DNA of 64,000 bases from Flavobacteriales bacterium (GCA_030584065.1 CP129489.1:1777497-1841496); one strand, 5' to 3'; counted from the stretch's first letter, positions 26,009-49,055 are shown. Program-made: numbers and translations. Notes: generated from the letters alone by a model not told the origin.

Positions 26009-26033
26009 CGAGAAGCGCGAGATCGTTCAGGCG

Positions 26034-26807: not shown

Positions 26808-27040
26808 ACCTATGCCCCAGGAGCCTCTAGTTATGATCGGCCCGAAAACAGGGGAAGCTTACAAGGGCAACAGCGCGTTTTGGTCCGCGAAGCTGGACGC
26901 CAACAAGGCCCGGGACCGCAAGGTGAATCGTGAGCTTCTAGCCATGGGATGGCGCGTGCTAAGGATTTGGGAATGTAAGCTCCCCCAAGATCAGGTGCGT
27001 GGGATAGTAGAAACCCACAACCCACCTGAACTTTGGAGCA

Positions 27041-27307
27041 ATGAAGAAGAGTAAATGGACGGAAGCGCAGATCGTAGGGATGCTGCGCGAGCATGAGCAG
27101 GGCCGCAAAGTGGCGGACATCTGCCGGGAGCACAGAGTAAGCCAGCCGACGTTCTACCAGTGGAAGGCCAAGTATGGTGGCATGGGCGCAAGCGAGCTCA
27201 AGGAGCTACGGGCATTGCGCGAGGAGAATACCAAGCTGAAGCTCAAGCTGGCCGACACGATCCTGGACCGTGACATCCTCAAGGAGATCCTGGGAAAAAA
27301 GCCCTAG
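27041..27307 (+). CDS. IS3-family transposase OrfA
   Basis: [48 protein letters not shown]...; ends ...ILGKKP*. Confidence 0.8.
   Translation: MKKSKWTEAQIVGMLREHEQGRKVADICREHRVSQPTFYQWKAKYGGMGASELKELRALREENTKLKLKLADTILDRDILKEILGKKP
27295..27301 (+). promoter_or_regulatory. programmed -1 ribosomal frameshift heptamer A AAA AAG of IS copy 2
   Basis: 'gga aaa aag ccc tag' in the orfA frame. The -1 frame continues KKALGLAEKREMAHWLV... into orfB. Confidence 0.7.
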
Positions 27308-27327
27308 GGCTCGCCGAGAAGCGTGAG

Positions 27328-28227
27328 ATGGCACACTGGCTTGTAACGCAGTGCAAGCGCAGTGTTCGGCGGGTCTGCAAGCTGCTATGCTTGAGCCAGA
27401 GCGTGTATCGCTACGAGCCCAAGCCGAAGGACGATATCGACGTGATCGAACACATGAACCACTGGGTGACCAAGAAACCGACCTGGGGCTTTTGGAAGGT
27501 GTACACTCGTGTACGCAAGGACGGCCGTGTGGTGAACCACAAGCGCCTACACCGGCTGTACACCACAGCAGGGCTCAACCTGCGTCGACCTACGAAGAAG
27601 CGCGTTCCGGACCGGGTGAAAGAGCCACTGTGTTTGCCGATCGGCCCGAACATCACTTGGAGCATGGACTTCATGGCCGACCGGCTGCTGAACGGCAACA
27701 AGCTGCGCACGTTCAACGTCATTGACGACTTCGGCCGCGAGGCACTGAACATCACGATCGACACCTCTATCCGCGCCCAGTACGTGACGCGTGAACTGGA
27801 CAAGTTGATCGAGTGGCGTGGCAAGCCAGAGCGGCTGCGAGTGGACAATGGCCCTGAGTTCATCGCCCAGGAGATGGAATTGTGGGCGGAACGCAACGGC
27901 ATCGCACTTACGTTCATCGAGAAGGGGCGTCCCATGCAGAACGGCCTGATCGAGCGATTCAATCGCACCTACCGGGAAGAAGTGCTGGACGCCTACCTGT
28001 TCGAGAACCTCGAACAGCTTCGCCAGCTGACCATCGAGTTCATCTGGAGCTACAACAACGAGCGGCCCCATGATGCACTCCTGGACCTGACCCCGCGCGA
28101 GTTCCTGTTGAAATGTGGACAACTCCCTGCCCACTACGCAGGCTCACGCGCGGACTTCCCCACATTCCAACAGGATGATCACCACAGATCAACAGAAGTG
28201 GTGATCTTTAGGAATTCGCGCGCCTGA
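27328..28227 (+). CDS. IS3-family transposase OrfB (DDE)
   Basis: DNGPEFIAQ...; -1 frame relative to orfA. The OrfAB fusion is reachable by slippage at the A_AAA_AAG site. Confidence 0.8.
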   Translation: MAHWLVTQCKRSVRRVCKLLCLSQSVYRYEPKPKDDIDVIEHMNHWVTKKPTWGFWKVYTRVRKDGRVVNHKRLHRLYTTAGLNLRRPTKKRVPDRVKEPLCLPIGPNITWSMDFMADRLLNGNKLRTFNVIDDFGREALNITIDTSIRAQYVTRELDKLIEWRGKPERLRVDNGPEFIAQEMELWAERNGIALTFIEKGRPMQNGLIERFNRTYREEVLDAYLFENLEQLRQLTIEFIWSYNNERPHDALLDLTPREFLLKCGQLPAHYAGSRADFPTFQQDDHHRSTEVVIFRNSRA

Positions 28228-28311
28228 TCAGGGGGAGCTTACAGGAACATGACCTAACCGATAGGCGTGTTTCCCATACCATTAACCGCATTGAAGAATA
28301 CATCCAGATGT

Positions 28312-29175
28312 CTACCGCGAAGTAGGGTTTCGGAACAATACCATTTCCTTGAACTGAGCTGAGTCTAGTTGGTTATCGACTTCTCTCTCATTGTTCGCTG
28401 CAGTTGGTCCTCTCCAAACAGGAGATAGTCGCCAATTAATGACCCCGTTCCTTATACTATTCAGCACTGTTTCGGTCCATTCTGGGGAATAGGCGCAACC
28501 TGGCGGTGTGCTAGGTAAACTCATTGCATGAACAATCACAAATTCTAATCCTTTGTTAAACCTCTTTATGCATTGTTTCCACCACTTAGTTTTCACTGAA
28601 TGCTGAAGATGTGTATCATTCTCCATATAACCGAAAAGCTCCTCCTCGAAAATCTGGCAGAGTTTATCCATATTCTTAATTTCAGCATCCCTTAAGTAAC
28701 CCTCAGATTGAAATGGTGCATCAGCAGGAAGAGAATTGATGAACGCCTCTACGAACACATTCCAAGATTGGTCCGTAAGTCCGTGGTTTCTCCAATTTTC
28801 ACGATAGTGTCCAAGCTCGTCAAGCTGTGAGGTTACTCTTCCAATTATACGGAGCTTGGCTTCCGACCGACTAATACCCTCCCATGCAAGAGACTCACTA
28901 GCCTCGGCGCCAAAGCGGCGCTGCGCGTTTGTGAGTTCATCTTCGCTAATTGCAGAGTACTTTAATGCCTTATGTGTATACTGGTACTTATTCTGTGTGA
29001 ATTCATCATGTGCATTTGCAACAACTTCTAGAAAATCCTCATGATTTGGCCCTTTAAACACAGTAACTGGAACTGGTTGATTGGGCCGAGCGATGAGGTA
29101 AGCGCACAATCGATGATTGCCATCAAATACTTTTAACTGACCATCCGAGTATCGGCATAGAATAGGCGAAAGCAA
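28312..29175 (-). CDS. ParB/Srx-superfamily (DGQHR/DUF262-like) domain protein; no ATG start, in frame with the upstream HNH ORF
   Basis: ...SDGQLKVFDGNHRLCAYLIARPNQ... (D-G-x-H-R motif). Track start is a TTG. The 45 codons upstream, up to the HNH stop, contain no stop. Lower GC than the flanks. Confidence 0.55.
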   Translation of the reverse strand: MLSPILCRYSDGQLKVFDGNHRLCAYLIARPNQPVPVTVFKGPNHEDFLEVVANAHDEFTQNKYQYTHKALKYSAISEDELTNAQRRFGAEASESLAWEGISRSEAKLRIIGRVTSQLDELGHYRENWRNHGLTDQSWNVFVEAFINSLPADAPFQSEGYLRDAEIKNMDKLCQIFEEELFGYMENDTHLQHSVKTKWWKQCIKRFNKGLEFVIVHAMSLPSTPPGCAYSPEWTETVLNSIRNGVINWRLSPVWRGPTAANNEREVDNQLDSAQFKEMVLFRNPTSR

Positions 29176-29310
29176 TGGATTAGATCTCAGGTGCCATGCT
29201 AGGTTGATGACCTTGCGAACATCCGCTGCGCGTGTCTGTACTTGCCTGTCTACCCATAGCAGGGCTGGAGGAACAACAGTTGAAAATGAAGTCCATCTTT
29301 TATTGGTGAA

Positions 29311-29772
29311 CTATTGATGCATGACAGGATACTCCCTGTCTTGAAAGGTGGCTATATGTCGTTGATCATCCCATACAATATGCGCCTTGTACTCTGCAGC
29401 ATCAGGTGATCTCCCCGGAAGAAGGTCGTCTGAGAATCTTGTATTGGAGGCTTTGCGATGTATTTTAATATACTCAATCCATTCCTGTCCAGTGTACTTA
29501 TTGCCCTTCCCCTTGTGACAGTTCCTTCTTGCGGCAGTATCATATCCATCTTCAAAACAGGAAACTCCATCCCTTGCTGCATGAACAGGGTATTGATTGG
29601 CAACAAGGTCTGCTTGACGATCTCCGACTAATCCTTGGGCTAGCCAATGATCGAACTGGATATCTCCGAAATGTGCATATCCGTCGAAGTTTGAATGTGG
29701 TAAGCCCAAGCCGTCGCACACGTAGCATCGTGGCTTCTGCTCAAGTCTGCGCTCCTTCTCTGCTCGCGTCAT
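29311..29772 (-). CDS. HNH endonuclease domain protein
   Basis: CYVCDG...QFDHWLAQG...N...CHKGKGNK (CxxC...DH...N...CHxxK). Ends with a TAG at 29311-29313 in the same frame as the downstream ParB-like ORF. Confidence 0.7.
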   Translation of the reverse strand: MTRAEKERRLEQKPRCYVCDGLGLPHSNFDGYAHFGDIQFDHWLAQGLVGDRQADLVANQYPVHAARDGVSCFEDGYDTAARRNCHKGKGNKYTGQEWIEYIKIHRKASNTRFSDDLLPGRSPDAAEYKAHIVWDDQRHIATFQDREYPVMHQ

Positions 29773-29791
29773 GGCTTTGTTTCACTTATCG

Positions 29792-29890
29792 TTACATATT
29801 CCTCCGGTACTGCCCCCCCACCTCGAACATCGCTTGCGTCAACCGCCCTAGCGAGCAGTACTTCGTCGCCTCCATCAGCACCGCGAATCC
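29792..29890 (-). repeat. icmF 3'-terminus copy D (last ~33 codons plus stop), direct repeat
   Basis: ttacatattcctccggtactgccccc... encodes ...[31 protein letters not shown]; compare the real icmF end at 43246. Confidence 0.8.
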
Positions 29891-30044
29891 CGCTCCGGCA
29901 TCCGTAGGCCTCGTACCTCGGCCACGGTCGCTACGGCGGGACTTCGCGCTGCTTAGCATGGTGGTCATCACAAGTCGATCAAGGGCACAACGTAGACCCG
30001 GACGTGCGCATCCACGGTAACGATGTACGTATCGAGCAGCAGCT

Positions 30045-30260
30045 TCATTCCATGTACTCCTTGAAGTCATCCAAGGGTGCATCGAAGTCGTCCGGCACCG
30101 TCACCATGCCCTTGGCCAAGCCGGGCACCGGCGTCTTGCGCTTCTCCTGCGGCTCATTGCCCTGCCGGCGACGCATCAGGAACTCGATGAAGTCGAGCAC
30201 CTGCTGGCGAACATCCTCCGGGAGGGAGGATAGCTGGATGTAGTTGTGCGCCTTGGCCAT
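30045..30260 (-). CDS. DUF2281-family antitoxin (orphan)
   Basis: MAKAHNYIQLSSLPEDVRQQVLDFIEFLMRRRQ...; no toxin gene downstream. Confidence 0.6.
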   Translation of the reverse strand: MAKAHNYIQLSSLPEDVRQQVLDFIEFLMRRRQGNEPQEKRKTPVPGLAKGMVTVPDDFDAPLDDFKEYME

Positions 30261-30281
30261 GACACGAAGATAAGCCCGGAG

Positions 30282-30395
30282 CGGGTCCGGTCACATGTTC
30301 CTCCGGTTCTGACCACCTACCTCGAACAACCTGTCCCGCCTTAGCGGATCGCTTGCGTCAACTGCCCCAGCGAGCAGTCCGTCGTCGCCTTCATC
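30282..30395 (-). repeat. icmF 3'-terminus copy E (degenerate)
   Basis: tcacatgttcctccggttctgaccacctacctcgaaca...cgcttgcgtcaactgccccagcgagcagtccgtcgtcgccttcatcagcac. Confidence 0.7.
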
Positions 30396-30420
30396 AGCAC
30401 GGAGCAGTTGACGCCGATGA

Positions 30421-30861
30421 TCATTTCAAGAACTCGTCCGTGAAGTTCCGCGCGCTCAGTATCCGTGTGTGTCCATAGCTCCGCATCGAGAGCAGGTCGT
30501 CATCGCCGGTGATCAGCAGATCAGCCTTCCCCTTCTTCGCCATCAGCAGCAGATAGTCATCCTTGGGGTCGCGGGAGAGGGGAGCCTGGCCGGTGGACCG
30601 CACCTCCACGGATTCCCCAGCTTCCGCCAGGGCGAGGATCAGTTGATGGGCGAACTCTACAGGGAAATGCTTGCGGAACCTCGCTCGTGCGGCCACATCC
30701 AGCAGCTCGGCCAGTAGTTGGGGGCTCACCAGCAGAACGAAGTCGCTGTGGCGCAAGGCAGCCACGAAGCCTCCCAGCCGCTTGCCGATCAGGAAGCTGA
30801 TGAGCACGTTGACGTCAACGACGACGCGCAGCGCGGCTCGCTTCCTTTTTGGCGGCGGCAT
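30421..30861 (-). CDS. PIN-domain toxin (putative toxin-antitoxin system toxin component, PIN family)
   Basis: VVDVNVLISFLIG...DDYLLLMAKKGKADLLITGDDDLL (the PIN acidic residues). Confidence 0.75.
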   Translation of the reverse strand: MPPPKRKRAALRVVVDVNVLISFLIGKRLGGFVAALRHSDFVLLVSPQLLAELLDVAARARFRKHFPVEFAHQLILALAEAGESVEVRSTGQAPLSRDPKDDYLLLMAKKGKADLLITGDDDLLSMRSYGHTRILSARNFTDEFLK

Positions 30862-31078
30862 AACGTTGGGCCCTTACGATATCCACCTCCTTGCGGATGG
30901 TCTCTTCATCGATGTCCACGCCCTTGAGCTTGGACATGAGTTCCTCCAGCCGGTCGAGCGCGCGTTCCCGCTCCAAGGCCTTGACCAGGGCCGCCTTCTT
31001 TTTCTCAGGCAATTGCTTGGCCAGCTCCACCACCTGGTCGGGGGTGAGATCGATACGGAATCCGCGGTCGAATGACAT
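30815..31078 (-). CDS. cognate antitoxin of the PIN toxin (small coiled-coil/RHH-like protein)
   Basis: MSFDRGFRIDLTPDQVVELAKQLPEKKKAALVKALERERALDRLEEL...; overlaps the PIN ORF start. Confidence 0.5.
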   Translation of the reverse strand: MSFDRGFRIDLTPDQVVELAKQLPEKKKAALVKALERERALDRLEELMSKLKGVDIDEETIRKEVDIVRAQRYAAAKKEASRAARRR

Positions 31079-31104
31079 GACCCAAAGATAAGCGATGCCC
31101 GGCC

Positions 31105-31215
31105 TTACATGTTCCTTCTGTACTGCCCACCCACCTCGAATCCCGCTCGTATGCCCGTACGCCTCGTTCCTCGGCAACGGTCATAACGGCGGGACTTCGC
31201 GCTGCTCAGCATACG
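31105..31215 (-). repeat. icmF 3'-terminus copy F (internally deleted version of copy D)
   Basis: ttacatgttccttctgtactgcccacccacctcgaa, then a post-divergence segment shared with copy D (...cggcgggacttcgcgctgct.agcat...). Confidence 0.7.
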
Positions 31216-31737
31216 CCTCATCACATATTACGTCGGTACTGTCCACCGACCTCAAACATAGCGGCGGTGAGCTGCCCCAGCGAACAATACTTCGTCGCCT
31301 CCATCAGCACCGCGAACATATTCTGGTTCCTGATCGCCGCCTGCTGAAGATCCTTGATCGCCTTGGCCGCCTCTGCCGAGTATGCCTGCTTCAAGTTCTC
31401 GACGGTGGCGATCTGCGCCTCCTTCTCCTCCTCGGTGGCGCGGATCACCTCCTTGGGCAGGATGGTGGGCGAGCCCTTGCTGCTGAGGAAGGTGTTCACG
31501 CCGATGATGGGGTATTCGCCGGTGTGCTTCAACGTTTCGTAGTAGAGGCTTTCCTCCTGGATGCGGCTGCGCTGGTACATGGTCTCCATGGCGCCCAGCA
31601 CGCCGCCGCGCTCGGTGATGCGATCGAACTCGGCCAAGACGGCCTCCTCCACCAGGTCGGTGAGCTCTTCGATGATGAAGCTGCCTTGCAGCGGGTTCTC
31701 GTTCTTGGCCAGGCCGAGCTCCTTGTTGATGATGAGC

Positions 31738-31930
31738 TCTTGGGTACCACACCGCACCCCGTTCCGGCGCCATCCGCCTTCGGCGGCCCCTTCGGGCGGG
31801 CGCGCTCGTCCGGCCATGCTGCGTTGCTCGTCGGTCGGCTACCTCGTGGTAGCCTCCCTTCCTCGCGCCTTGCCTGGCCGAACGATCATCGCCCGTGGCA
31901 TCCGTTCGGGGCACGGCGTGGTACCCTGTG
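31738..31930. repeat. MITE-like ~190-bp insert 1 (terminal inverted repeats GGGTACCAC / GTGGTACCC; core GCTACCTCGTGGTAGCCTC...CTGGCCGAACGATC...TGGCATC)
   Basis: Present in copy C between 'gatgatgagct' and 'ggccatggcgcgg'; absent from the intact icmF at 43730-43800. Confidence 0.65.
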
Positions 31931-32185
31931 GCCATGGCGCGGCGCACGCTTTCCTCGGTGCCTGAGCCTGCCCCGGCCTCCGAGCCGGGGTGGTGATGGC
32001 CTCGTCGTAGGCGTTGGTGTGCAGGCTGTTGCAGTTGTCGTAGATGGCGTAGAGCGCCTGCAACGTGGTGCGGATGTCGTTGAAGTCGATCTCCTGCGCG
32101 TGGAGGCTGCGGCCGCTGGTCTGGATGTGGTACTTCAGCATCTGGCTGCGCTCGTCGGCGCCGTAGCGGTGCTTGAGCGCCTTGG

Positions 32186-32382
32186 CCCGTTGGGTGCCAC
32201 GAAGTCCACCGAGCAGCGCCACTGCGGTGTAGCCGCTGCCCTTCGGGTGAGCGCCGCTCATTCGCCCATACTTCGTTGCTTCCTCAGTCAGCTACCTATG
32301 GGTAGCCTCTCTTCGTCGCGCCTCGTCTGGCCGAACGATCGTCACTCATGGCATCTGCCCGGCGAACTCCGAGGCACCCCGG
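32186..32382. repeat. MITE-like ~195-bp insert 2, same family as insert 1
   Basis: ...GCTACCTATGGGTAGCCTCTCTTCGTCGCGCCTCGTCTGGCCGAACGATCGTCACTCATGGCATCTGCCCGG...; absent from the intact icmF at 43985-44000. Confidence 0.65.
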
Positions 32383-32942
32383 CGGCGCGCCACGCGGCCC
32401 ATCACGGCGTACTCGGGGTCCATGCCGTTGCTGAAGAAGAAGCTCAGGTTGGGCGCGAAGGCGTTGATGTCCATGCCCCGGCTCAGGTAGTACTCCACGT
32501 AGGTGAAGCCGTTGGCCAAGGTGAAGGCAAGCTGGCTGATGGGGTTGGCGCCGGCCTCCGCGATGTGGTAGCCGCTGATGCTGACGCTGTAGAAGTTGCG
32601 GACCTTCTTGTCGATGAAGTATTGCTGCACATCGCCCATCAAGCGCAACGCGAACCTGCCTGTCCGGTAGGCAGGCTCGGTGCTGAAGATCGTTGTTCTG
32701 CGCCTGGTGGTTATGCCCGCCCTGAGCTTGTCGAAGGGTTGGGCGTGCCCCCTCGCAAAAGCCTCGGGGTCGCGTGCTTCGCTTTAGCCGGACTTGTCAG
32801 GGCCAGCATCCACGGCGCTGCGGGGTCCTCCTTCGTCGGCCTCCTCGCTGCTCGTGGTTGCAAGGCCCTTCCAGCGCCGGGCTGCCGCTTCGCCCGCTCA
32901 CGCAGATCCATTGTACCACGTTGAACGTGTACTTTTGTCCCA

Positions 32943-33299
32943 ATGCGCCGCCTCCTCTTCCTCCTAACCCTTGCCCTTTATGGCTATAGCGCCATGGATA
33001 TGCGCGAGTGGGTGCGAGTGCCGCAAGTGGTACTTCATATGCTGGAGCACCACAGCGATCTGGGCCACCATGACGAGGAAGGCTCGGACCATGAGCACGG
33101 TACCGGCCACGACCACATGCCCTTCGATTGTGATTGCCATGGCGAGTTCTGCGCATGCAGCGGCACGGTGGCCTTGTCCACTGAACCACAAGCCGCGCTG
33201 ATCTCGCTTGTTCCGCTCACCGCCACCTTGGGTGCCGCTGAACTTCCCATCGCTTCGGGTGCGTTCTCGGGCAACGTGTGGAACCCGCCCAAAGCCTGA
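32943..33299 (+). CDS. His/Cys-rich small putative metal-binding protein (signal or anchor helix at N-terminus)
   Basis: ...HHSDLGHHDEEGSDHEHGTGHDHMPFDCDCHGEFCACSG... Confidence 0.45.
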   Translation: MRRLLFLLTLALYGYSAMDMREWVRVPQVVLHMLEHHSDLGHHDEEGSDHEHGTGHDHMPFDCDCHGEFCACSGTVALSTEPQAALISLVPLTATLGAAELPIASGAFSGNVWNPPKA

Positions 33300-33405
33300 G
33301 TTGCCGCCACGTGCGGTAGTTCCTGCCTGTTCCGCCTGAGCGGATCGGGCTTGTCCGCGTTCCCGCGAACGCATTCCATTTCGTTCCATCTCGAAGTCAT
33401 TTCCC

Positions 33406-36400
33406 ATGATCGACCGGATCATCAAGTTCTCCATCCACAACAAGGCCATCATCGGGCTGTTCACGCTCGTGCTGGTGCTTTACGGGGCGTACTCGCTCAC
33501 GCAATTGCCGATCGATGCGGTACCCGACATCACCAACAACCAGGTGCAGGTGATCACCACCACGCCTACGCTGGCCGCGCAGGAGGTGGAACAGTTCGTT
33601 ACCGCGCCCATCGAGCGGGCCATGGCCAGCCTGCCCGATCTGGTGGAGATCCGCTCCATCAGCCGCTTCGGGCTAAGTCTTGTGACCATCGTATTCGATG
33701 AGGACGTGGACGTGTACTTCGCCCGCACCTTGGTGGACCAGCGCCTGGGCGAGGCCGCCGCACTGATACCGCCCGGGGTGGGCACACCGACCATGGCCCC
33801 GGTAAGCACCGGGTTGGGCGAGGTGTACCAATACGTGCTGCACCCCAAGGAAGGGTACGAGGGCACCTTCAGCCCCAGCGAGCTGCGCACCATCCAGGAA
33901 TGGATCGTAGTGCGGCAGCTGTTGGGCACACCCGGTGTGGCCGAGGTGAACAGCTACGGCGGCGAGGTGAAGCAGTACGAGGTGAGCGTGGACCCCAAGC
34001 GCTTGCAAAGCATGGGCGTCACCATCGGTGAGCTACTGCTCGCGTTGGAGAGCAACAACGAGAACACCGGCGGCGCCTACATCGAGAAACGGCCCAACAG
34101 CTACAGCATCCGGGGCGAAGGACTGCTGCGCACGCTGGACGACATCCGCAAGGTGGTGGTGAAGATCCCGCCCGGCGGTGTGCCGCTCCTGGTGGGCGAT
34201 GTGGCCGAGGTGGGCTTCGGTGCGGCCCCGCGCTACGGTGCGCTCACCCGCAATGGCGAAGGCGAAGCGGTGGGCGGCACGGTGATGATGCTGAAGGGTG
34301 GCAACAGCGCCGAAGTGGTGAAGGCTATTGAAGCGCGCATACCGAACGTGCAGAAGGCCCTGCCGGAAGGGCTGATGATCGAACCCTATCTGGTGCGCAG
34401 CGAACTGGTGGGGCGGGCCATCGGCACGGTGAAGACGAACCTGATCGAGGGCGCGTTGATCGTGATCTTCGTGCTGGTGCTCTTTCTAGGAAATTGGCGC
34501 GCGGGCCTCATCGTGGCCTCGGTGATCCCACTGTGCATGCTCTTCGCCATCATCCTCATGAACGCCTTCGGCGTCAGCGGCAATTTGATGTCGCTTGGTG
34601 CCATCGATTTCGGATTGATCGTGGACGGCGCCGTGATCATCGTGGAGGCCACCCTGCACCACCTGCATGCGCGCTTCAAGGGAAGGATCCTTACCCGCGA
34701 GGAGATGGACCGCGAGGTTTTCGTGAGCGCCAGCAAGATCCGGACGAGCGCGGCCTTCGGCGAGATCATCATCCTGATCGTGTACATCCCCATCCTCACA
34801 CTGGTGGGCATCGAGGGCAAGATGTTCCGCCCCATGGCCATCACCGTCAGCTTCGCCATCCTGGGTGCCCTGTTGCTCTCGCTCACCTATGTGCCCATGA
34901 TGAGCGCGCTGGTGCTGCCGCGCAACACGGCGCACAAACCCAACTTCAGCGACCGCATGATGGACCGTTTCCAGAAGTGGTACGATCCCATCATCGGCTT
35001 CGCCTTGCGCAACCGGATCAAGACCGTGGGTGTGGCCGTGGCGCTCTTCATCAGCTCGGTCTTCCTGTTCGCACGCATGGGCGGCGAGTTCATTCCCACC
35101 TTGGAAGAGGGCGACTTCGCCTTCCACAGCATCCTGCCGCAGGGCGCATCGCTCAGCCAGAGCATCGCCAACAACGCCAAGGTGGAGAAGATCCTGCTGC
35201 AATTCCCGGAGGTGAAGCAGGTGGTGGGACGCACCGGCAGCGCCGAGATCCCCACGGACCCCATGCCCCCCGAAGCCACGGACCTCATGATCATCTTGAA
35301 GGACAAGGACGAATGGACCACCGCGCACGACCGCGAGGCTTTGCAGGACACCATGCTGCAAGCCTTGAGGCAGGTACCCGGCGTGTTCTACGAAGCCACC
35401 CAACCCATCCAGATGCGCTTCAACGAATTGATGACCGGCATACGGCAGGACGTGGCCGTGAAGATCTACGGTGAGAACATGGACACCCTCGCGGTGATCG
35501 CGAACAAGGTGGCGGCGATCATCGGCGAAGTGCAAGGTGCGGGTGAACCGCAGGTGGAAAAGGTGGTGGGCCTGCCACAGATCACCATCACCTACGATCG
35601 TGCACGGGTAGCGCAGTACGGCCTCAACATCCGCGAACTGAACCGCACCGTGCGCACGGCCTTCGCGGGCGAGGCCACCGGCGTCATCTACGAGAACGAG
35701 CGCCGCTTCGATCTGGTGGTGCGCCTCGGTGACCAACAGCGGCAGAGCATCGACGATGTGCGCACCCTCTTCGTGGCGCTGCCCGGTGGCGGACAGATCC
35801 AGTTGCAGCAGGTGGCCGATGTGTCCTTGACACCCGGCCCGGCCCAGATCAGCCGGGAGGATGCCAAGCGCCGCATCGCCGTGGGCGTGAACATCCGTGG
35901 CCGTGACGTGGAAAGCTTCGTGGAAGAGCTCCAAGGCCGCATCGATGCCGAAGTGCCAATGCCCGCGGCCTACTACTACACCTTCGGCGGCACCTTCGAG
36001 AACCTGCAGGCAGCTAGCAAACGCCTGATGCTGGCGGTGCCCATCGCGCTGGCCCTCATCTTCCTGCTGCTCTTCTTCACCTTCAACAGCGTGAAGCGCG
36101 CCCTGCTGATCTACACCGCCATCCCCATGAGCGCCATCGGCGGTGTGCTTGCGCTCATGGCGCGCGGCATGCCCTTCAGCATCAGCGCGGGCGTGGGCTT
36201 CATCGCGCTCTTCGGCGTGGCGGTGCTCAACGGCATCGTCCTCATCGCCACCTTCGACCAACTGGAAAAGGAAGGCATCAGCGACCTGAAGGAGCGCGTG
36301 TTGAAAGGTACCCGCACACGGCTGCGTCCCGTGCTGATGACGGCGGCGGTGGCCTCGCTCGGTTTCCTGCCCATGGCCTTGAGCGGCAACGCGGGCGCGG

Positions 36401-37728
36401 AAGTGCAACGCCCCCTGGCCACGGTGGTGATCGGTGGCCTCATCACCGCCACGGCCCTCACCCTCATGGTGCTGCCGGTGCTTTACCTGCTCTTCATGGG
36501 CGGAGGCAGGAGGCGCAACGATGCCAATGGCGGCAAGGCGAACGCACCGCTGATCGTCGCGACCGTGCTGTTGATCATGATCGGCGGCACCAGCAGCGCA
36601 CAGGAACCGATGCCGATGGACACGGCGATCGCACGCGCCTTGCGCACCCATCCGAGCATGACCGCTGCGGAACTGCGTGTGCAGGAACAGGATGCCCTGC
36701 GTGGCACGGCCTTCGGGCTGCAGCCGCTCAACGCGCAATTCTCCCATGGCCAGACCCAGGGGCCGTATCCCAAGGACATTATCCTGGAAGCCAATACCGG
36801 GTTCGCATTTCCCACCACCATTGCCCGACGCGCGGCCTACCTGAAGGAAAGCCTGCACCTTGCGGAGAACGAAAAGCTGAACACGGCGGCCTACGTGAAG
36901 GAGAGCGCGGGAGGGGCCTACCTGCAATGGGCCATGGGCCTTGAACAGGTGCGTATCCTGCAACAGCTGGACAGCGCGTACGCATCCATGGCGGCCTTCG
37001 CGCTGCAGCGCTTCGAGCTCGGTGAGACCGGCCGCTTGGAAAGCACCAGTGCGCAAAGCCGCGCCGAGCAGGTGAAGGTGCGCTTGCGCCAGGCACAGGC
37101 TGATCTGGTGGCCTACCAGGTGGAAGTAGAACGCTGGACGGGCCCGCTCAGTGGTGCCGTGCCGGTGCCCGAGGAATTGCTCAACACCGCACGAGCGCCG
37201 GATCCCGGCGGCGGCAACGACCCGCTCCTGCTCTCCTTGCAGCAGCGCACGCAGGTGGCCGAGGCCGAATGGAAACTGCAACGCAGCCAATGGGCACCCA
37301 GCCTGCAGGGCGGCGGCTTCTACCAGACCTTCGATGGCACGTCGCCCTTTTCGGGCTTCCTCATCGGTGCTTCGATCCCCCTGCCCGGCAGCGGCCAGGG
37401 CGGTCGCACCTCGGCGGCACGTTTGCGCAGCGAGATCGCCGCGCAGGAACTGGAAGCCGCACGCCGACAGCGCAGCAGCGAGCGCGCCACCACGCAGGCG
37501 CAGCTCACTCAATTGCGCGAGAGCCTCGCCTTCTATGAAAGCACCGGTGCCGCGCTGGGTGCTACCCTGCGCGACGATGCCCTGCGTGCCTATCGCGCGG
37601 GCGAAGCCGACTACTTCCAATTCACTCAAGGCATCGAGCAGGCCTTTCAACTCAACGCCGAGCACCTGCGCGTGCGTTACGAGCTCGCACTTACCGTCCT
37701 CCACCTCCGTGCCCTCAATGGGCTCTAA
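33406..37728 (+). CDS. czcA: CzcA/CusA-family heavy-metal RND pump fused in frame to a TolC/CzcC-type outer-membrane factor (1440 aa, no stop between them)
   Basis: Residues 1-~1030 are a typical HME-RND (12 TM helices, two large loops). Then ...VLPVLYLLFMGGGRRRNDANGGKANAPLIVATVLLIMIGGTSSAQEP... (a signal-peptide-like segment) and ~400 aa of OMF repeats. Confidence 0.8.
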   Translation: MIDRIIKFSIHNKAIIGLFTLVLVLYGAYSLTQLPIDAVPDITNNQVQVITTTPTLAAQEVEQFVTAPIERAMASLPDLVEIRSISRFGLSLVTIVFDEDVDVYFARTLVDQRLGEAAALIPPGVGTPTMAPVSTGLGEVYQYVLHPKEGYEGTFSPSELRTIQEWIVVRQLLGTPGVAEVNSYGGEVKQYEVSVDPKRLQSMGVTIGELLLALESNNENTGGAYIEKRPNSYSIRGEGLLRTLDDIRKVVVKIPPGGVPLLVGDVAEVGFGAAPRYGALTRNGEGEAVGGTVMMLKGGNSAEVVKAIEARIPNVQKALPEGLMIEPYLVRSELVGRAIGTVKTNLIEGALIVIFVLVLFLGNWRAGLIVASVIPLCMLFAIILMNAFGVSGNLMSLGAIDFGLIVDGAVIIVEATLHHLHARFKGRILTREEMDREVFVSASKIRTSAAFGEIIILIVYIPILTLVGIEGKMFRPMAITVSFAILGALLLSLTYVPMMSALVLPRNTAHKPNFSDRMMDRFQKWYDPIIGFALRNRIKTVGVAVALFISSVFLFARMGGEFIPTLEEGDFAFHSILPQGASLSQSIANNAKVEKILLQFPEVKQVVGRTGSAEIPTDPMPPEATDLMIILKDKDEWTTAHDREALQDTMLQALRQVPGVFYEATQPIQMRFNELMTGIRQDVAVKIYGENMDTLAVIANKVAAIIGEVQGAGEPQVEKVVGLPQITITYDRARVAQYGLNIRELNRTVRTAFAGEATGVIYENERRFDLVVRLGDQQRQSIDDVRTLFVALPGGGQIQLQQVADVSLTPGPAQISREDAKRRIAVGVNIRGRDVESFVEELQGRIDAEVPMPAAYYYTFGGTFENLQAASKRLMLAVPIALALIFLLLFFTFNSVKRALLIYTAIPMSAIGGVLALMARGMPFSISAGVGFIALFGVAVLNGIVLIATFDQLEKEGISDLKERVLKGTRTRLRPVLMTAAVASLGFLPMALSGNAGAEVQRPLATVVIGGLITATALTLMVLPVLYLLFMGGGRRRNDANGGKANAPLIVATVLLIMIGGTSSAQEPMPMDTAIARALRTHPSMTAAELRVQEQDALRGTAFGLQPLNAQFSHGQTQGPYPKDIILEANTGFAFPTTIARRAAYLKESLHLAENEKLNTAAYVKESAGGAYLQWAMGLEQVRILQQLDSAYASMAAFALQRFELGETGRLESTSAQSRAEQVKVRLRQAQADLVAYQVEVERWTGPLSGAVPVPEELLNTARAPDPGGGNDPLLLSLQQRTQVAEAEWKLQRSQWAPSLQGGGFYQTFDGTSPFSGFLIGASIPLPGSGQGGRTSAARLRSEIAAQELEAARRQRSSERATTQAQLTQLRESLAFYESTGAALGATLRDDALRAYRAGEADYFQFTQGIEQAFQLNAEHLRVRYELALTVLHLRALNGL

Positions 37729-37740
37729 GACCGCATAGAC

Positions 37741-39120
37741 ATGAAAACGCAACCGATCAACAGCGCTCTTCAGCGCATGCCGAATACGCTCTTTCTGCTC
37801 CTGCTCACCATCGCACTGGCCGCCTGTGGCGGTGGCGCGGCCTCCGGCGAAGAAGAAGGCCATGGCCACGGCGAAGAGGAGGGCCACGGCGGTGGGAGCA
37901 CCGTCACCGTTTCGCCGCAACAATTCGCCGCCATCGAGGGCAAGCTTGGCAAGGTGGAGATGAAGGACCTCACCACCGCCCTCAAGGCCGTCGGCTTTTT
38001 GAAAGTGCCGCCGCAGAACGTCGCCGACATCACCGTGGCCATGGGAGGCACCGTGCGCGAAGTGCTGGTGCAGGAAGGCGACCATGTGAACAAGGGGCAG
38101 GTGCTCGCTACGGTCACCGACCCTTCGATCATCCAACTGCAACGCGACTACCTCGATGCGAAAGCACGACTGGTGTACGCCGAAACGGAATTGGAACGCC
38201 AGACCGAACTGGCCCGCGCCAACGTGAGCGCGCAGAAGACCCTGCAACAGGTCACGGCGGAACACGCCTCCTTGCGGGCCAGCGTGAACGCCCATGCCGA
38301 GCAGTTGCGCCTGATCAACATCGACCCCGAGAAGCTCACTGCCAATGCACTGCGCTCAGCCGCGGGCATCGTAAGCCCCATCGATGGCACCGTGGCGCAC
38401 ATCGCGGTGAACGTGGGAAGCAAGGTGAGCAACGATGCCACAATGTTCCGCGTGGTGAACAACAGCAAGCTCCACGTGGACCTCTTCCTCTACGAACAGG
38501 ACATCGCCTCCGTGAAGGTGGGCCAGACCATCGACCTCAGCCTCACCAACCTGCCGGGCAAGAACTACACGGCCGTGGTCTTCGCCATCGGCAGTGCCTT
38601 CGAACGCGAGACGAAGACGATCCCGGTGCACGCGGAGATCACCGGCGACAAAGTGGGCCTGATCGACGGCATGGGCGTTACCGGGCGCATCAGCGTAGGC
38701 AACGCCACCACCACCGCCGTGCTCACCGAGGCCATCGTGAACATGGAAGGCAAGGACTACGTGTTCATCAGGACCGAAGGTGAAGAGGAGCATGGGCACG
38801 GGCATGATGAAGAGCCCGCGCACAAGGAGGAACCGGCGCACAAACACACCGAAGGGGAAGCACACGATCACGCGAAGGAGAACAAGGCAACCCATGCACA
38901 AGGTGAGGTGCACGAACATGACCATAGCGATGAACATGCGCACGAGGCCGCAACCGGCAGCATGAGCTTCCAACGCATCGAAGTGAAGCGTGGAACGACC
39001 GATGGCGCGTACACAGCAGTAACCTTCCTGCAACCGGTGGACCCGGACGCCGAAGTGGTGACCGGTGGCGCCTACTACCTGATCGCGATGATGAACACGA
39101 GTGAAGGACACGAGCATTAA
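37741..39120 (+). CDS. czcB: efflux RND periplasmic adaptor (CzcB/HlyD family) with His-rich N- and C-terminal tails
   Basis: Lipoyl/beta-barrel MFP fold; EEGHGHGEEEGHGGG and GHGHDEEPAHKEEPAHKHTEGEAHDHAK...VHEHDHSDEHAHE metal-binding tracts. Confidence 0.85.
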   Translation: MKTQPINSALQRMPNTLFLLLLTIALAACGGGAASGEEEGHGHGEEEGHGGGSTVTVSPQQFAAIEGKLGKVEMKDLTTALKAVGFLKVPPQNVADITVAMGGTVREVLVQEGDHVNKGQVLATVTDPSIIQLQRDYLDAKARLVYAETELERQTELARANVSAQKTLQQVTAEHASLRASVNAHAEQLRLINIDPEKLTANALRSAAGIVSPIDGTVAHIAVNVGSKVSNDATMFRVVNNSKLHVDLFLYEQDIASVKVGQTIDLSLTNLPGKNYTAVVFAIGSAFERETKTIPVHAEITGDKVGLIDGMGVTGRISVGNATTTAVLTEAIVNMEGKDYVFIRTEGEEEHGHGHDEEPAHKEEPAHKHTEGEAHDHAKENKATHAQGEVHEHDHSDEHAHEAATGSMSFQRIEVKRGTTDGAYTAVTFLQPVDPDAEVVTGGAYYLIAMMNTSEGHEH

Positions 39121-39124
39121 GATC

Positions 39125-41005
<1,881 letters not shown>

Positions 41006-41038
41006 GGGTTCTGGAACATAACTTGCGTGGCTACGAAC

Positions 41039-41419
41039 ATGAAACAGCTGACCACCCTGCTCTTTGCCTTTTGCACACTGGGCCTATCTGCACAAACCGG
41101 TGCAGTTTCCCCGCCCGCCAAAGGCAAGAAGACCGCCACCATCGCCATCCAGAGCACTGGCATCTGCGATATGTGCGAGAAGACCATCGAGACCGAACTC
41201 GTCTATACCAAGGGCGTGAAGAAGGTGGATGTGGACCTCAGCACCGCTGCCGTGAGCGTGACCTACGATCCGCGCAAGACCGACGCGGACAAATTGCGTG
41301 CAGCACTCACCAAGCTGGGGTACTCCGCTGATGGTACACCGGGTAATGCCTCAGCATTTGCCAAGTTGCCCCAATGCTGCCAGAATGAAGGCTGCGGCAA
41401 GTTGCCGGTGAAGCAATGA
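41039..41419 (+). CDS. secreted HMA-domain (MerP-like) metal-binding protein with variant GICDMCE metal site and C-terminal CCQNEGCG
   Basis: Signal peptide MKQLTTLLFAFCTLGLSAQ; ferredoxin-like HMA fold ...IAIQSTGICDMCEKTIETEL... Confidence 0.65.
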   Translation: MKQLTTLLFAFCTLGLSAQTGAVSPPAKGKKTATIAIQSTGICDMCEKTIETELVYTKGVKKVDVDLSTAAVSVTYDPRKTDADKLRAALTKLGYSADGTPGNASAFAKLPQCCQNEGCGKLPVKQ

Positions 41420-41787
41420 AGCTTCATTGGGCCATGCCGACGCAGGTGCGGCCATACTACGGAGCAGAGTTGCGCAAGAGCGAAGAGGCTCGCACGCTCG
41501 GCGATCTGCAACTCGAATGGCACCATCTCGAGCGGGCCCATATTCTCGGCCAGCGTTGGCCCTTGGAGCACAACGCGGTGCATTGGCGCATGCTGAAGTT
41601 CGGGTTCCGTACCAAGAACATGCGCGAGATCATCGGACAGTTGCCGCGTCTGGTCTTCGGTGGGGTGAAGAGCTTCGCGGGCACGGTGCCGATCGGGAAT
41701 ACGGGCGGAGCGAATGTGCCGGCGCTGAAGCCGCTGGCGTTACCAGACGACCTAGCAGCGATACTCAATGACACCTTTGCCGTGTGA
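41416..41787 (+). CDS. DUF3703 domain protein (common next to heavy-metal efflux genes)
   Basis: MKLHWAMPTQ...LGDLQLEWHHLERAHILGQ...; 4-nt overlap with the preceding gene. Confidence 0.6.
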   Translation: MKLHWAMPTQVRPYYGAELRKSEEARTLGDLQLEWHHLERAHILGQRWPLEHNAVHWRMLKFGFRTKNMREIIGQLPRLVFGGVKSFAGTVPIGNTGGANVPALKPLALPDDLAAILNDTFAV

Positions 41788-41842
41788 TCGATAGTGCGAT
41801 CACCGTGTCCGAGAGTGAATGGAGTATCGTGCCCTTCGCGGG

Positions 41843-42312
41843 TCACATATTCCGCCGATACTGCCCCCCCACCTCAAACATTGCAGCAGTTAACTGACCC
41901 AGGCTGCAATACTTGGTCGCTTCCATCAAGACCGCAAACATGTTCTCGTTCTTGATCGCAGCCTCTTGAAGCTTCCGAGTGCGGCTTTCCCTTCAGCCTC
42001 ATAAGCCTTCTGCACGTTCTCCACGGTGCGGATCTGCGCTTCCTTCTCCTCTTCCGTAGCACGGATCACTTCCTTCGGGAGAACGGTCGGCGATCCTTTG
42101 CTCGACAAGAACGTGTTCACCCCAATGATCGGATACTCACCCGTGTGCTTCAGGGTCTCGTAGTACAAGCTCTCTTCCTGGATCCTTGAGCGCTGGTACA
42201 TGGTCTCCATGGCGCCCAGCACGCCGCCGCGCTCGGTGATGCGGTCGAACTCGCTGAGCACGGCCTCTTCCACCAGGTCGGTGAGCTCCTCGATGATGAA
42301 GCTGCCCTCGCG
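41843..42312 (-). pseudogene. icmF 3' copy B (~470 bp, frameshifted)
   Basis: Track ORFs 41926..42273 and 41874..42062 give ...[93 protein letters not shown]..., then the frame is lost. Confidence 0.8.
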
Positions 42313-42328
42313 CGTTCCCTTGCTTTGA

Positions 42329-43249
42329 TCACACTACGATGTACCGCTCTTGCAAATACGTTAGCCACTTATCGAAATCGGGTGATGGCGAATGCTCCTG
42401 GCAGATATCAAGAAATCGTTCATAAGTAAGCGTCATGAACCTGCCGTCCGGTGCGGCTAGGAAGGACTTGTAGCCTGTGCAAGCGTCGTCCATGTGCTTA
42501 TTGCCTTTCGGGAACAAGGTGAGCGAGGTAGCGTGGGCAAATCGCTCAGGATGCTTGAGCAGAATGCTCTCCGCGAGTAGGTGGTTCCGCCAGATCTGCC
42601 GGTAATCGTCTGTGATCACCTGTGTTTCGCATCCCGGCTTGAATATCCCACAGGCAGCCATGACCTTGAAGTAAATAGAGGCTCGGTCATTCACAGTTCG
42701 CTCTTCCGTGGAGCCATGCTTCAATTTGTAGGCGCGTTCGGTGTACTTCACCTCAATCCCGATAAGCCCCCGCCGACCTTCCTTATCAGTGCTTTCGGTA
42801 TATGCATCGAAAGATGTACCATCATTCAAATACTCTGAACGTGGCGACGGCGCAAACTCGATGCGAATCGGATCGACAGTGCTCAAGGGTTCTCCAAGCA
42901 AGTCTGAGAAAACCTGCAGGCGATACTTATCGTCCAAGTTCAGGGGCCAGAGCATGTTCAACGGAATGTGCTCGCTCCGAAGCATGTTCCCATAGACCTT
43001 CTCGCTCGTTATCGGATAACGCTTCCTAGCGGCTTCCAAGATGCCTAACTCGGGATAGAAGTTGCATCCTGCATCCGCGTCGCATGGCGTTAGGAAGTTG
43101 CCGTAGTTCTTCGTCTTACTCCATCCGTGTGGCAATTTCAACCGCTCTGCACGGAATCTTGATTGATGAAGGCGCGCCTTCTTCAGGAATTCGGACTTAT
43201 CGAGTCCGTCATCCCCGCTGTATTGTGGTCCGATACCGTAACTCATCAC
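42329..43249 (-). CDS. hypothetical PD-(D/E)XK-like nuclease-fold protein (cargo of the cassette nearest icmF)
   Basis: ...[29 protein letters not shown]... (D...E-x-K). AT-richer than the flanks. Its start overlaps the icmF stop. Confidence 0.4.
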
Positions 43250-46200
43250 ATATTCCTTCTGTACTGTCCGCCGACTTCGAACATGGCCGCAGTGAGTTGA
43301 CCGAGACTACAGTACTTGGTGGCTTCCATCAACACTTCGAACATGTTCTCATTCTTGATCGCAGCTTGCTGGAGGTCTTTGATGGCTTTGGCCGCCTCAT
43401 CCGCATAAGCAGTTCGGAGATTCTCGACGGTCGCTATCTGGGCTTCTTTCTCCTCTTCCGTAGCTCTGATGACCTCTTTCGGCAAGATCGTCGGTGATCC
43501 TTTGCTCGACAGGAAGGTATTCACCCCGATGATGGGATACTCACCCGTGTGCTTCAAGGTCTCGTAGTACAAGCTTTCCTCCTGGATGCGGCTGCGCTGG
43601 TACATCGTTTCCATCGCACCCAAGACCCCACCACGTTCCGTGATCCGATCGAACTCCGTCAACACCGCTTCCTCGACGAGATCCGTCAATTCTTCGATGA
43701 TGAAGCTGCCCTGCAACGGGTTCTCGTTCTTGGCCAGGCCGAGCTCGCGGTTGATGATGAGCTGGATGGCCATGGCGCGGCGCACGCTTTCCTCGGTGGG
43801 CGTGGTGATGGCCTCGTCGTAGGCGTTGGTGTGCAGGCTGTTGCAGTTGTCGTAGATGGCGTACAGCGCCTGCAACGTGGTGCGGATGTCGTTGAAGTCG
43901 ATCTCCTGCGCGTGCAGGCTGCGGCCGCTGGTCTGGATGTGGTACTTGAGCATCTGGCTGCGCTCGTCGGCGCCGTAGCGGTGCTTGAGCGCCTTGGCCC
44001 AGAGGCGACGCGCCACGCGGCCCATCACGGCGTACTCGGGGTCCATCCCGTTGCTGAAGAAGAAGCTCAGGTTGGGCGCGAAGGCGTTGATGTCCATGCC
44101 CCGGCTGAGGTAGTACTCCACGTAGGTGAAGCCGTTGGCCAGCGTGAACGCGAGCTGCGAAATGGGGTTGGCGCCGGCCTCCGCGATGTGGTAGCCGCTG
44201 ATGCTGACGCTGTAGAAGTTGCGGACCTTTTGGTCGATGAAGTACTGCTGAACGTCGCCCATCAAACGCAGCGCGAACTCGGTGCTGAAGATGCAGGTGT
44301 TCTGCGCCTGGTCCTCTTTGAGGATGTCGGCCTGCACGGTGCCGCGGACGCTCTGCAGGGTCTCCGCCTTGATCTTCTCGTAGACGTCTTTCGGGAGGAC
44401 TTGGTCGCCGGTGATGCCGAGCAACAACAATCCTAGGCCATCATTGCCCGCAGGTATTTCTCCGTGGTAGCGCGGTCGAGGTGAATGGTGAATGGGAGTT
44501 GGTGAATGGGAAGAGCCCTTCCCTCCATTCGCCATTGACCATTCGCCATTCGCCTTCTCCAACTTCTCCCAGCGCTCCTTGATCTTCTTCTCCACCTCGG
44601 CCTCCAACCCGTGCTCACGGATGTACTTCTCACAGTTCTGGTCGATCGCGGCGTTCATGAAGAAGCCGAGGAGCATGGGCGCGGGACCGTTGATGGTCAT
44701 GCTCACGCTGGTGTTGGGCGCGGTGAGGTCGAAGCCGCTGTAGAGCTTCTTGGCATCGTCCAGGCAGCAGATGCTCACACCGCTGTTGCCCACCTTGCCG
44801 TAGATGTCGGGCCTGCGACCGGGATCGTGGCCGTAGAGCGTCACGCTGTCGAACGCGGTGCTGAGGCGCTTGGCGGGCATGCCCTGGCTCACGTAGTGGA
44901 AGCGCTTGTTGGTGCGCTCCGGACCGCCCTCGCCGGCGAACATGCGCGCGGGGTCCTCGCCCTGGCGCTTGAAGGGATAGATGCCCGCGGTGTAGGGGTA
45001 CGACCCCGGGGTGTTCTCCTGCATGGCCCAGCGCACCTTGTCGCCCCAGCTGCGGAACTTGGGCAGCGCCACCTTCGGGATCTTCAGGTGACTGAGGCTC
45101 TCGGTGTGGTTGGGCACCTTGATCTCCTTGCCGCGGACGGAGTAGGTGTAGAATTCACCGGAGTATTTCTCCTCCTCCTTCTTCCAGTTCTGGAGCATGG
45201 ACCAGAGGTGGGGGTCGAGGTCTTTGCGGATGTCCTCGAACTTCTTCACCAGCTCAGTAACGAGTGGTGAGTGGCGAGTGGCGAGTGTGCCGTCGGAGGC
45301 AGCACTCGCCACTCGCGACTCGTCACTCACCACTCCGTGAAGGACGTCAGGCCCGCCGAGCGTGAGGATCGATGAGTACAGACCATAGAGTTGGTCCGCA
45401 ATACGTGCCTGTTTCGTCACCCGATCATCATACCTCCGGTTGTTCTCGCTGATCTCGCTGAGGTAGCGGCTCTTGGCGGGGGGAATGATCCACACCTTCT
45501 CGCTCATCTCGTCCATCCCGTGGAAGGTGCTCTTGAAGTCCACGCCGGTCTTCTCGGCGATCTTGGTCATCAAGCGGGCGTAGAGCGTGTTGGTGCCGGG
45601 ATCGTTGAACTGGCTGGCGATGGTGCCCACCACGGGGAGCGTGTCATCGTCGGCGTCCCACAGCTGGTGGTTGCGCTTATACTGCTTCTTCACGTCGCGC
45701 AGGGCATCGAGGGCGCCGCGCTTGTCGAACTTGTTGATGGCCACCACGTCGGCGAAGTCGAGCATGTCGATCTTCTCCAGCTGCGTGGCCGCGCCGAACT
45801 CCGGCGTCATGATGTAGAGGCTCACATCGCTGTGGTCCAGGATCTCGGTATCGCTCTGGCCGATGCCGCTCGTCTCCAGGATGATCAGGTCGAAGCCCGC
45901 GGCCTTCAGCACGCTCACGGCCTCCTTCACGTGCTTGCTGAGGGCCAGGTTGCTCTGGCGCGTGGCGAGGCTGCGCATGTATACACGCTCGCCGCGGATG
46001 CTGTTCATGCGGATGCGGTCGCCCAGCAGCGCGCCGCCGGTCTTGCGCTTGCTCGGGTCCACGCTGATCACGCCGATGGTCTTGCCTTGGTCCGGGCTTG
46101 ACCCGGACTGGTCCAGGATGAAGCGGCGGATGAGCTCGTCCACCATGGACGATTTACCCGCGCCGCCCGTACCCGTGATGCCCAGCACGGGAGCCTTGTT

Positions 46201-46803: not shown

Positions 46804-47052
46804 GTGAGGTACGCGGCTTGCCGCGAAGGTACCGGTCCAAGTTCGATCGGTAAACGTTTGGGCGTGCCCCTTCCCCCGGATGCCACTCCGGGGCTCAGGG
46901 TCCGGCTCTTCGCTGTACTCCTCCCCCTCGCCCCCCTCGAATCCGCTCCGCTGCGCTCTGGGCCCCCGGGTGCGGGGTGCCGCTGCGATCCGTCACGCGG
47001 ATCCCCGGACTACAAAGCGCTTCGGTACATTAGCCACACTACCAATGACAAG

Positions 47053-47254: not shown

Positions 47255-47287
47255 ACCGCAAGCCAGGACCTATTCCGCTTGGCTCGA

Positions 47288-48739: not shown

Positions 48740-48757
48740 CGCAATGTTAACTACATC

Positions 48758-48985: not shown

Positions 48986-49055
48986 AAGGTACCGGTGGAA
49001 CACCGTTCCTCAAATCATCAGTAGAAGGCCACGGGAGTAGGCGTAGGTTAGTCAT

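Follow-up and report, generated by a model that had tools for sequence, protein, structure and literature searches.

Strain-variable cassette stacks bounded by displaced copies of the icmF 3′ end in a lineage of Bacteroidota

How do six copies of the end of one metabolic gene come to stand in a row, with unrelated genes between them? The question is raised by a stretch of 64,000 nucleotides from a Flavobacteriales bacterium (GCA_030584065.1, CP129489.1:1777497-1841496), which was analysed at its full length and is hereafter called the window. The gene is icmF, and a first interpretation made from the DNA alone (the sequence-only reading) had taken the array for the product of serial site-specific integration at its 3′ end. 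We find that such arrays are strain-variable stacks of cassettes occurring well beyond this window, and we lean, with some reserve, towards another origin, namely accretion and shuffling of cassettes by ordinary homologous recombination anchored on icmF, with no dedicated integrase.

The host genome is GC-rich (about 65%) and belongs to Bacteroidota, with sorting domains of the type IX secretion system (T9SS) encoded in neighbouring genes. The anchor open reading frame (ORF) at 43246-46788 on the minus strand encodes a single polypeptide combining the Pfam domains PF02310 (B12-binding), PF03308 (MeaB GTPase) and PF01642 (MM_CoA_mutase), and scores 1752.9 bits against the NCBIfam equivalog NF045497 (cut-off 1500). 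Because of this domain set and the match above the cut-off, the gene is identified as the fused isobutyryl-CoA mutase/GTPase IcmF, a metabolic gene dependent on vitamin B12; the same domains and equivalog rule out the IcmF of type VI secretion (T6SS) and Dot/Icm systems. Other loci are referred to below by numbered handles. In genome collections, the IcmF ends most similar to this one come from two metagenome-assembled genomes (MAGs), one of an uncultured Bacteroidetes (L001, 97% amino-acid identity) and one of Flavobacteriales (L002, 93%), and exact-sequence look-ups with the IcmF protein and with the PD-(D/E)XK protein encoded beside it matched no record.

Both a repeat search and a degenerate-core search of the 64-kb window recover the icmF 3′ terminus, stop codon included, in six direct copies on one strand, as the sequence-only reading had reported. 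Their stop codons lie at 29792 (copy A), 30291 (B), 31105 (C), 31221 (D), 41843 (E) and 43246 (the live gene); five of these positions had been given correctly, and that of B had been placed at 30282. The degenerate 38-nt core has six matches against 0.00 expected from 100 shuffles, which rules out a chance repeat. Like icmF, all displaced copies are on the minus strand. The outermost, A (29792-29887), is 96 nt long; B (30291-30406) has about 115 nt, including a 20-nt insertion of a hairpin remnant at its second ATGTTCG motif; C (31105-31140) has 36 nt; D (31221-32905) holds about 1,300 nt of icmF and two insertions of ~190 nt resembling miniature inverted-repeat transposable elements (MITEs); E (41843-42316) has about 470 nt and is 77% identical to the live end and 90% to the L086 allele. 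In the length range of 35-1470 bp proposed earlier, the upper value is to be corrected, as D contains about 1,300 nt of icmF, and a peptide example credited to copy C is found in copy D.

Pairwise identity among the window copies is 68-86%, and the differences fall mostly at third codon positions, which argues that the copies are diverged imported alleles and not products of duplication in place, as the sequence-only reading had also held. The idea of a diversity-generating retroelement, with its template and variable repeats, was dropped, since no reverse transcriptase is present and the substitutions are synonymous in type instead of adenine-specific. The segments of copy D are 80%, 88% and 93% identical to the live gene. 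Its two related MITE-like insertions (31739-31928 and 32189-32380) have terminal inverted repeats GGGTACC.../GGGTGCC... and an internal hairpin in which GGCTACC and GGTAGCC enclose a loop, and relatives of them are present in L170, L161 and L196. Copy C is possibly a deletion derivative between two ATGTTCGAGGTG repeats; the class of 36-46-nt copies to which it belongs is seen again at several other loci, mostly with a hairpin.

Consecutive copies bracket the modules that the sequence-only reading had named: a DUF2281/VapB antitoxin, a VapB15-like/PIN pair, a metal module and a PDDEXK_13 gene. The last of these, a PD-(D/E)XK nuclease-family gene in the cassette adjoining live icmF (42329-43246, minus strand; PF20796 PDDEXK_13, E = 1e-64), overlaps the icmF stop codon with its own ATG (TGATG). 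The 9-kb metal-efflux module (32943-41787) runs on the plus strand, opposite to icmF, and consists of a small ORF, a CzcA-type resistance-nodulation-division (RND) pump fused to an OEP/TolC-like domain, HlyD, a P-type ATPase, HMA and DUF3703, the genes from the pump to DUF3703 spanning 33406-41787. In five other loci (L143, at 95.7% identity, L193, L122, L161 and L120) this module directly follows live icmF, and therefore whole blocks made of an icmF end and its neighbours circulate.

A recent event can be reconstructed in the window, where the live icmF body is separated from the metal module by the PD-(D/E)XK gene and a new 3′ end. Counted from the stop codon, live icmF is 95-100% identical to that of L143, L122 and L161 up to about -480 and about 78% identical after it; the alleles switch about 470-490 nt before the stop, and the left end of copy E is at -468. 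Since identity drops near -480, where copy E starts, live icmF (43246-46788) is a mosaic, in which the body is resident, the last ~470 nt are another allele that arrived with the PD-(D/E)XK cassette, and the older end was displaced downstream. The earlier proposal that cassettes were added serially is supported.

The other end of the gene carries a comparable event. Self-comparison of the window found a 193-nt direct repeat of the icmF start (46644-46836 and 48805-48996, 86% identical; whole event 46644-48996, minus strand), flanking a 2-kb insert of lower GC content (46837-48804) whose ORFs match no family. Copies of the icmF 5′ end are also present in L128 (four, 59-3014) and L196 (two, 820-3132), in coordinates that put icmF on the plus strand, and their inner boundaries vary. 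Arrays form, then, at both ends of icmF; a 5′-end duplication is predicted by recombination anchored on conserved parts of the gene and not by an integrase specific for the 3′ core.

Is the array a peculiarity of one genome? Among 80 Bacteroidota species with an IcmF relative, sampled from genome collections, extra icmF-end copies were found only in the two closest, L001 (three) and L002 (eight within 5.7 kb). A scan of metagenomes with a lineage-specific pattern yielded 120 loci, in which units were counted with a profile of the 93-nt unit; 51 of them carry more than one unit, always on one strand, with up to nine per locus. Contigs from activated-sludge metagenomes are among the carriers, and the arrays turn up in assemblies that are independent of one another, some on contigs of more than 1 Mb (L084, L124). 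Between the units lie 91 distinct segments, of which the median is 678 nt and all but five measure less than 1.7 kb (86), and their main ORF is co-oriented with icmF in a ratio of 62:14. Their cargo comprises VapB/PIN and DUF4160/DUF2442 pairs, small membrane proteins, restriction enzymes, a helicase, an HNH protein, a caspase-like protein and the metal module, and the same cassettes recur in other arrays beside different neighbours, so that they behave as movable units. Occupancy is polymorphic: the distance from the icmF stop to a conserved flank gene is 22.8 kb with six units in the window, 3.1 kb with four units in L001, and 3.0 kb with one detected unit in L170, whose flank is 96% identical to that of the window and whose single unit is D-like, with related MITE-like inserts. 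The comparison of related genomes suggested by the sequence-only reading did not reveal fixed synteny without polymorphism. The icmF-end arrays are confirmed as general beyond one window, as a strain-variable cassette stack. No earlier report of an insertion hotspot or of integration at icmF was found in the literature searched, in agreement with the same reading.

Where the cassettes were exchanged can be read from near-identical ones (pairs at least 93% identical) standing in different contexts; informative pairs are few, and a per-position association test with loose cassette families, for which these pairs were substituted, was uninformative. A unit's terminal stretch of at least 21 nt, with its type of stop codon, goes together with the cassette downstream of it, and its 5′ part with the cassette upstream. 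The switch points lie at -22 (two independent pairs), -34 (two or three), -43 and about -50, with one more between -33 and -13. In the pair that switches at -43 (L096/L137), a hidden crossover at -22 is very unlikely, because all seven third-codon positions from -42 to -22 match and about 80% mismatch upstream. The handful of informative pairs thus gives no single fixed crossover position in a short core; crossovers are spread over the shared homology and mosaic alleles are bounded by homology, as in homology-driven exchange.

The extent of the displaced copies is likewise variable. The left ends of 74 dereplicated copies lie from 36 to more than 600 nt from the stop (about 1,300 nt in D), with a mode at 84-107 nt that accounts for 34 of them. 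Among 44 live alleles, mean pairwise identity in 12-nt windows is 0.65-0.82 over the last ~110 nt against 0.46-0.52 at -120 to -180, and because of this high and then low identity the modal unit equals the terminal homology block of icmF. In 61 distinct displaced units, the pattern is that of coding sequence throughout: conservation at first and second codon positions is mostly 0.9-0.98 and third positions are free, which fits a descent of the units from functional gene ends of various donors. On neither strand is the folding of a unit significantly stronger than that of shuffled sequence (z = -0.3 to -2.3).

A recombinase was sought in several ways. A Pfam scan of the window's main candidate ORFs brought up no domain of a tyrosine or serine recombinase; the only enzymes of DNA rearrangement in it were IS3-type DDE transposases, and the sequence-only reading was right on this point. 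A six-frame screen for tyrosine and serine recombinase motifs in the window, the two MAG loci and the 120 metagenome loci returned spurious frames only, and the families that Pfam assigned to 16 of the larger array ORFs included no recombinase, being restriction enzymes, a helicase, HNH, a caspase-like protein, glycosyltransferases and other non-recombinase enzymes. Copies of a unit resembling an attP site had no match on viral contigs and none on phage records; on plasmids only real icmF genes matched. The earlier view that the array is made by site-specific recombination at a defined att core is not supported by these results: breakpoints lie between about -13 and -50 and left ends from 36 to ~1,300 nt, and the ~90-nt conserved block, the mosaic live gene, the 5′-end duplication and the failure to find a recombinase or an attP in these searches speak against it as well.

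A further feature of the junctions is a hairpin element of ~65-80 nt. In the window, copies A and C are each preceded by one of ~80 nt on the minus strand: that of C (31141-31220) occupies a junction between cassette and repeat and is inserted between the ATG and the TTCG of the motif, and the second (29888-29972), recognised by repeat family and structure, precedes A. Fourteen more occur in L101, L102, L129, L136, L137, L145, L149, L164, L169, L171, L180, L189, L198 and L200, giving 16 occurrences on about 150 displaced units. Every occurrence lies immediately 5′ of a unit, between ATG and TTCG and in a single orientation, and the stem of the element covaries (5 compensatory base pairs among 10 sequences). 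A terminator, a recombination site and a small mobile element are candidate roles. Rfam searches (E <= 1) assigned neither the repeat nor the hairpin to a known RNA family, the only matches being weak, miRNA-like ones to palindromes inside icmF. These two near-perfect palindromes (44478-44556 and 45266-45330) are in-frame insertions that add low-complexity peptides to the protein, and the first is not present at the corresponding place in L001; they resemble the in-frame palindromic elements of other bacteria.

The model that we favour, by a modest preference, is that the array results from homology-anchored accretion and shuffling of cassettes through ordinary homologous recombination, with no dedicated integrase. 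The anchor would be the last ~100 nt of icmF, a conserved block isolated from the gene body by a poorly conserved stretch; longer 3′ pieces or the 5′ start of the gene could serve likewise. DNA of a foreign strain or species would enter still joined to its own icmF end and would recombine homologously within the resident icmF. On the first occasion the other side would be joined in the resident 3′ region by an illegitimate join or a single-crossover (Campbell-type) event; on later occasions a copy displaced before would offer homology for another crossover there. The outcome would be a complete hybrid icmF with an imported end, followed by the cargo and then by the displaced resident end, and repeats of the cycle would stack cassettes. 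A cassette lying between two such patches could then be inserted, replaced, deleted or transferred by homologous recombination between them, and because patch-flanked cassettes would move in this way, the same cassettes would be met in different orders. We infer RecA-type recombination, illegitimate first joins, a route of DNA entry and a selection for spread that keeps the patches at ~90 nt.

Several observations weigh against this model. The cassettes are small and co-oriented, as in integrons. About half of the independent cassette/unit junctions lie 84-107 nt from the stop, with a small additional class at 36-46 nt, and both classes adjoin two copies of ATGTTCGNGGTG, which is tighter than random illegitimate joins predict; trimming to the useful homology block may explain this clustering. 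The junction hairpin is assigned no role. Stretches of ~90 nt that share about 80% identity should be poor substrates for recombination. Informative breakpoint pairs are few, and later gene conversion could blur a crossover that was originally fixed. Finally, the recombinase searches covered 64 kb of the host genome and locus fragments of at most 20 kb, so a trans-acting gene elsewhere would be outside their view.

For these reasons, namely the tight junctions, the integron-like cassettes and the unexplained hairpin, a recombinase acting in trans remains the main rival, although we consider it fairly unlikely. It would be an integron- or SCC-like system (after the staphylococcal cassette chromosome, SCC), in which an enzyme encoded elsewhere in the genome, or a host Xer-type recombinase, recognises an icmF-end core near ATGTTCGNGGTG or GGNCAGTAC; cassettes devoid of a recombinase would be excised and inserted, the hairpin being possibly a folded site, and homologous recombination would blur the junctions afterwards. 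Such a system would suit cassettes that are mostly single-gene and move as discrete units, two clean cases with both junctions at about -22 to -14, left ends clustered beside two ATGTTCG motifs, a covarying hairpin specific to junctions, and the restriction of arrays to one lineage, 77 other Bacteroidota species having a single copy. However, chance identity cannot account for the breakpoints at -34, -43 and about -50, some displaced copies are 300-1,300 nt long, and 5′-end arrays with variable boundaries have formed; in addition, the units lack attC-like folding, only 16 of about 150 displaced units bear the hairpin, and no recombinase was detected near any array. That the icmF ends are attachment sites of an undescribed integron-like gene-capture system, served by an enzyme encoded elsewhere or by a host recombinase, guided by the hairpin and with homologous recombination merely secondary, seems to us rather doubtful.

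The explanation proposed by the sequence-only reading, tandem accretion, supposes that integrative elements settled repeatedly at the icmF 3′ end, each with a replacement end; in the form weighed here they were integrase-bearing islands or prophages, which decayed to small cargo remnants and lost their integrases. It accounts for direct repeats of the gene end with the gene restored each time, for cargo typical of islands (toxin-antitoxin pairs, restriction enzymes, metal resistance) and for polymorphic occupancy, yet we consider it distinctly improbable: the searches of the window, the two MAG loci and the 120 metagenome loci yielded neither an intact element nor the remains of an integrase, and none of the phage, plasmid and viral records searched showed an attP. 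Repeats vary in length and crossovers in position, decay would not leave neat single-gene cassettes intact in other arrays, and the 5′-end arrays stay unexplained. Assembly chimerism at a strain-variable junction, or tandem duplication in place, could be entertained inasmuch as many of the supporting loci are metagenome assemblies. Nevertheless it is barely credible and was rejected on the codon pattern of divergence (copies 68-86% identical, differing mainly at third codon positions) and on the arrays found in independent assemblies, among them the L084 and L124 contigs of more than 1 Mb; the genes between copies are, moreover, unrelated.

How do these arrays relate to known systems? Composite SCC islands of staphylococci occupy the 3′ end of rlmH (orfX), where Ccr serine recombinases act on a short fixed site (~15-20 bp). 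The icmF arrays resemble them in stacking cassettes at the 3′ end of a housekeeping gene that stays intact, with direct repeats between cassettes, many of which lack a recombinase; they differ in repeats of about 36-1,300 nt, unfixed crossovers, mostly single-gene cassettes, involvement of the 5′ end and the failure to find a recombinase, no serine-recombinase motif being seen in the 64-kb window or in the locus fragments of up to 20 kb. Gene-end islands include Salmonella genomic island 1 (SGI1) at trmE, mobilizable genomic islands (MGIs) at yicC and the dusA islands. There, too, the gene receives a new end from the incoming DNA, a direct repeat results, and several elements can follow in tandem; direct repeats of the target-gene end with the gene restored are seen at icmF as well. 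In contrast, those islands have their own tyrosine integrase and a defined core, neither of which was found at icmF, where no integrase was found beside a candidate att site. Integrative islands at the 3′ or 5′ ends of protein genes, tandem integration included, are described in two papers (PMC2297512, PMC8409611).

Chromosomal integrons share with the icmF arrays small, co-oriented cassettes, often promoterless or of the toxin-antitoxin type, each followed by a repeat of ~60-140 nt and arranged in a strain-variable order; small size (median 678 nt), co-orientation (62:14) and variable order were all found here. The differences are that no IntI was found beside the icmF arrays (window ORFs, motif screen of the arrays and the 16 larger ORFs), that crossovers vary, and that the repeats are colinear copies of coding sequence and not attC palindromes. 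An identity with integron attC sites is rejected, given the lack of folding and the failure to find IntI in these searches.

In orphan rhs and cdiA-CT-immunity arrays, displaced 3′ fragments pile up downstream with companion genes, and homology allows swapping, as at icmF. The displaced ends there are the variable toxin cargo, whereas the displaced icmF end is conserved and the cargo unrelated to it. Homology-facilitated illegitimate recombination, and the additive flexible islands or tycheposons at tRNA genes, are alike in that one homologous anchor suffices, growth is by addition, and partial copies of the target arise. The tycheposons and other tRNA-linked islands are, however, integrase-dependent, and the setting in which homology-facilitated illegitimate recombination is known is transformation in the laboratory; it is not known to build ordered cassette arrays at a protein gene. 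By this comparison, the icmF arrays appear to combine traits of gene-end tandem islands, of integron-like arrays and of orphan-module arrays.

If the homology model is true, one conserved housekeeping gene would act as a portable landing pad on which stacks form without a dedicated recombinase; defence, toxin-antitoxin and metal-resistance cassettes would be stacked in an integron-like manner, a simple route to flexible islands in uncultured Bacteroidota. If a recombinase in trans and the hairpin are involved instead, the locus would represent a new cassette-capture system outside the integron family. The arrays are frequent enough in metagenomes for crossover points to be mapped and circles to be sought, which makes the mechanism testable.

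The two toxin-antitoxin cassettes of the window lie between its outer repeats, both on the minus strand. One (30421-31075) encodes a VapB15-like antitoxin and a PIN toxin, with a promoter-like TAnnTTTG motif ahead of it, and its start is found again in L114, L137 and L195. The other (29970-30260) holds a VapB (DUF2281) antitoxin gene (30045-30260) and an internally deleted PIN remnant; intact VapB-PIN versions of this cassette exist in L001, L107, L136, L189 and L192, the window containing the deleted form. A TAnnTT(T/C)G motif stands ~20 nt past the preceding stop at several cassette starts (30262-30290 and 31076-31104 in the window, 11617-11646 in L001), with an ATG ~4 nt beyond it, and follows 31 of 170 distinct units. 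The motif fits the Bacteroidota -7 promoter consensus, and it suggests that toxin-antitoxin cassettes bearing it may be leaderless and self-promoted.

In the metal module, a single ORF of 1440 amino acids (33406-37728) joins a complete CzcA/CusA-type RND pump (residues 1-1033) to an outer-membrane-factor domain of the OEP/TolC-like type (about 1160-1437). The metal module of L193 has a 1440-aa ORF in the same five-member cluster as well; the fusion, if real, is unusual.

Beyond the last repeat, a distal variable segment (20472-29791) extends to the conserved flank gene (19536-20471), its far side having no repeat boundary. It carries a Bro-N protein gene (20484-21332) matching the defence candidate PDC-S13, an HNH protein gene (21683-22210), a restriction set of Dcm methylase, EcoRII-type endonuclease and Vsr (22881-25908), IS3-type DDE transposases (26034-28227) belonging to two IS3 copies, one without the first ORF, and two low-GC genes with no family match (28312-29772). 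Most of this segment is missing from L001 and L170, both of which share the flank gene; L170 retains a homologue of 21557-22304. On the other side of icmF, 49056-49946 and 50014-50898 are tandem paralogues with T9SS C-terminal sorting domains, which have in common a 209-nt stretch that is 82% identical.

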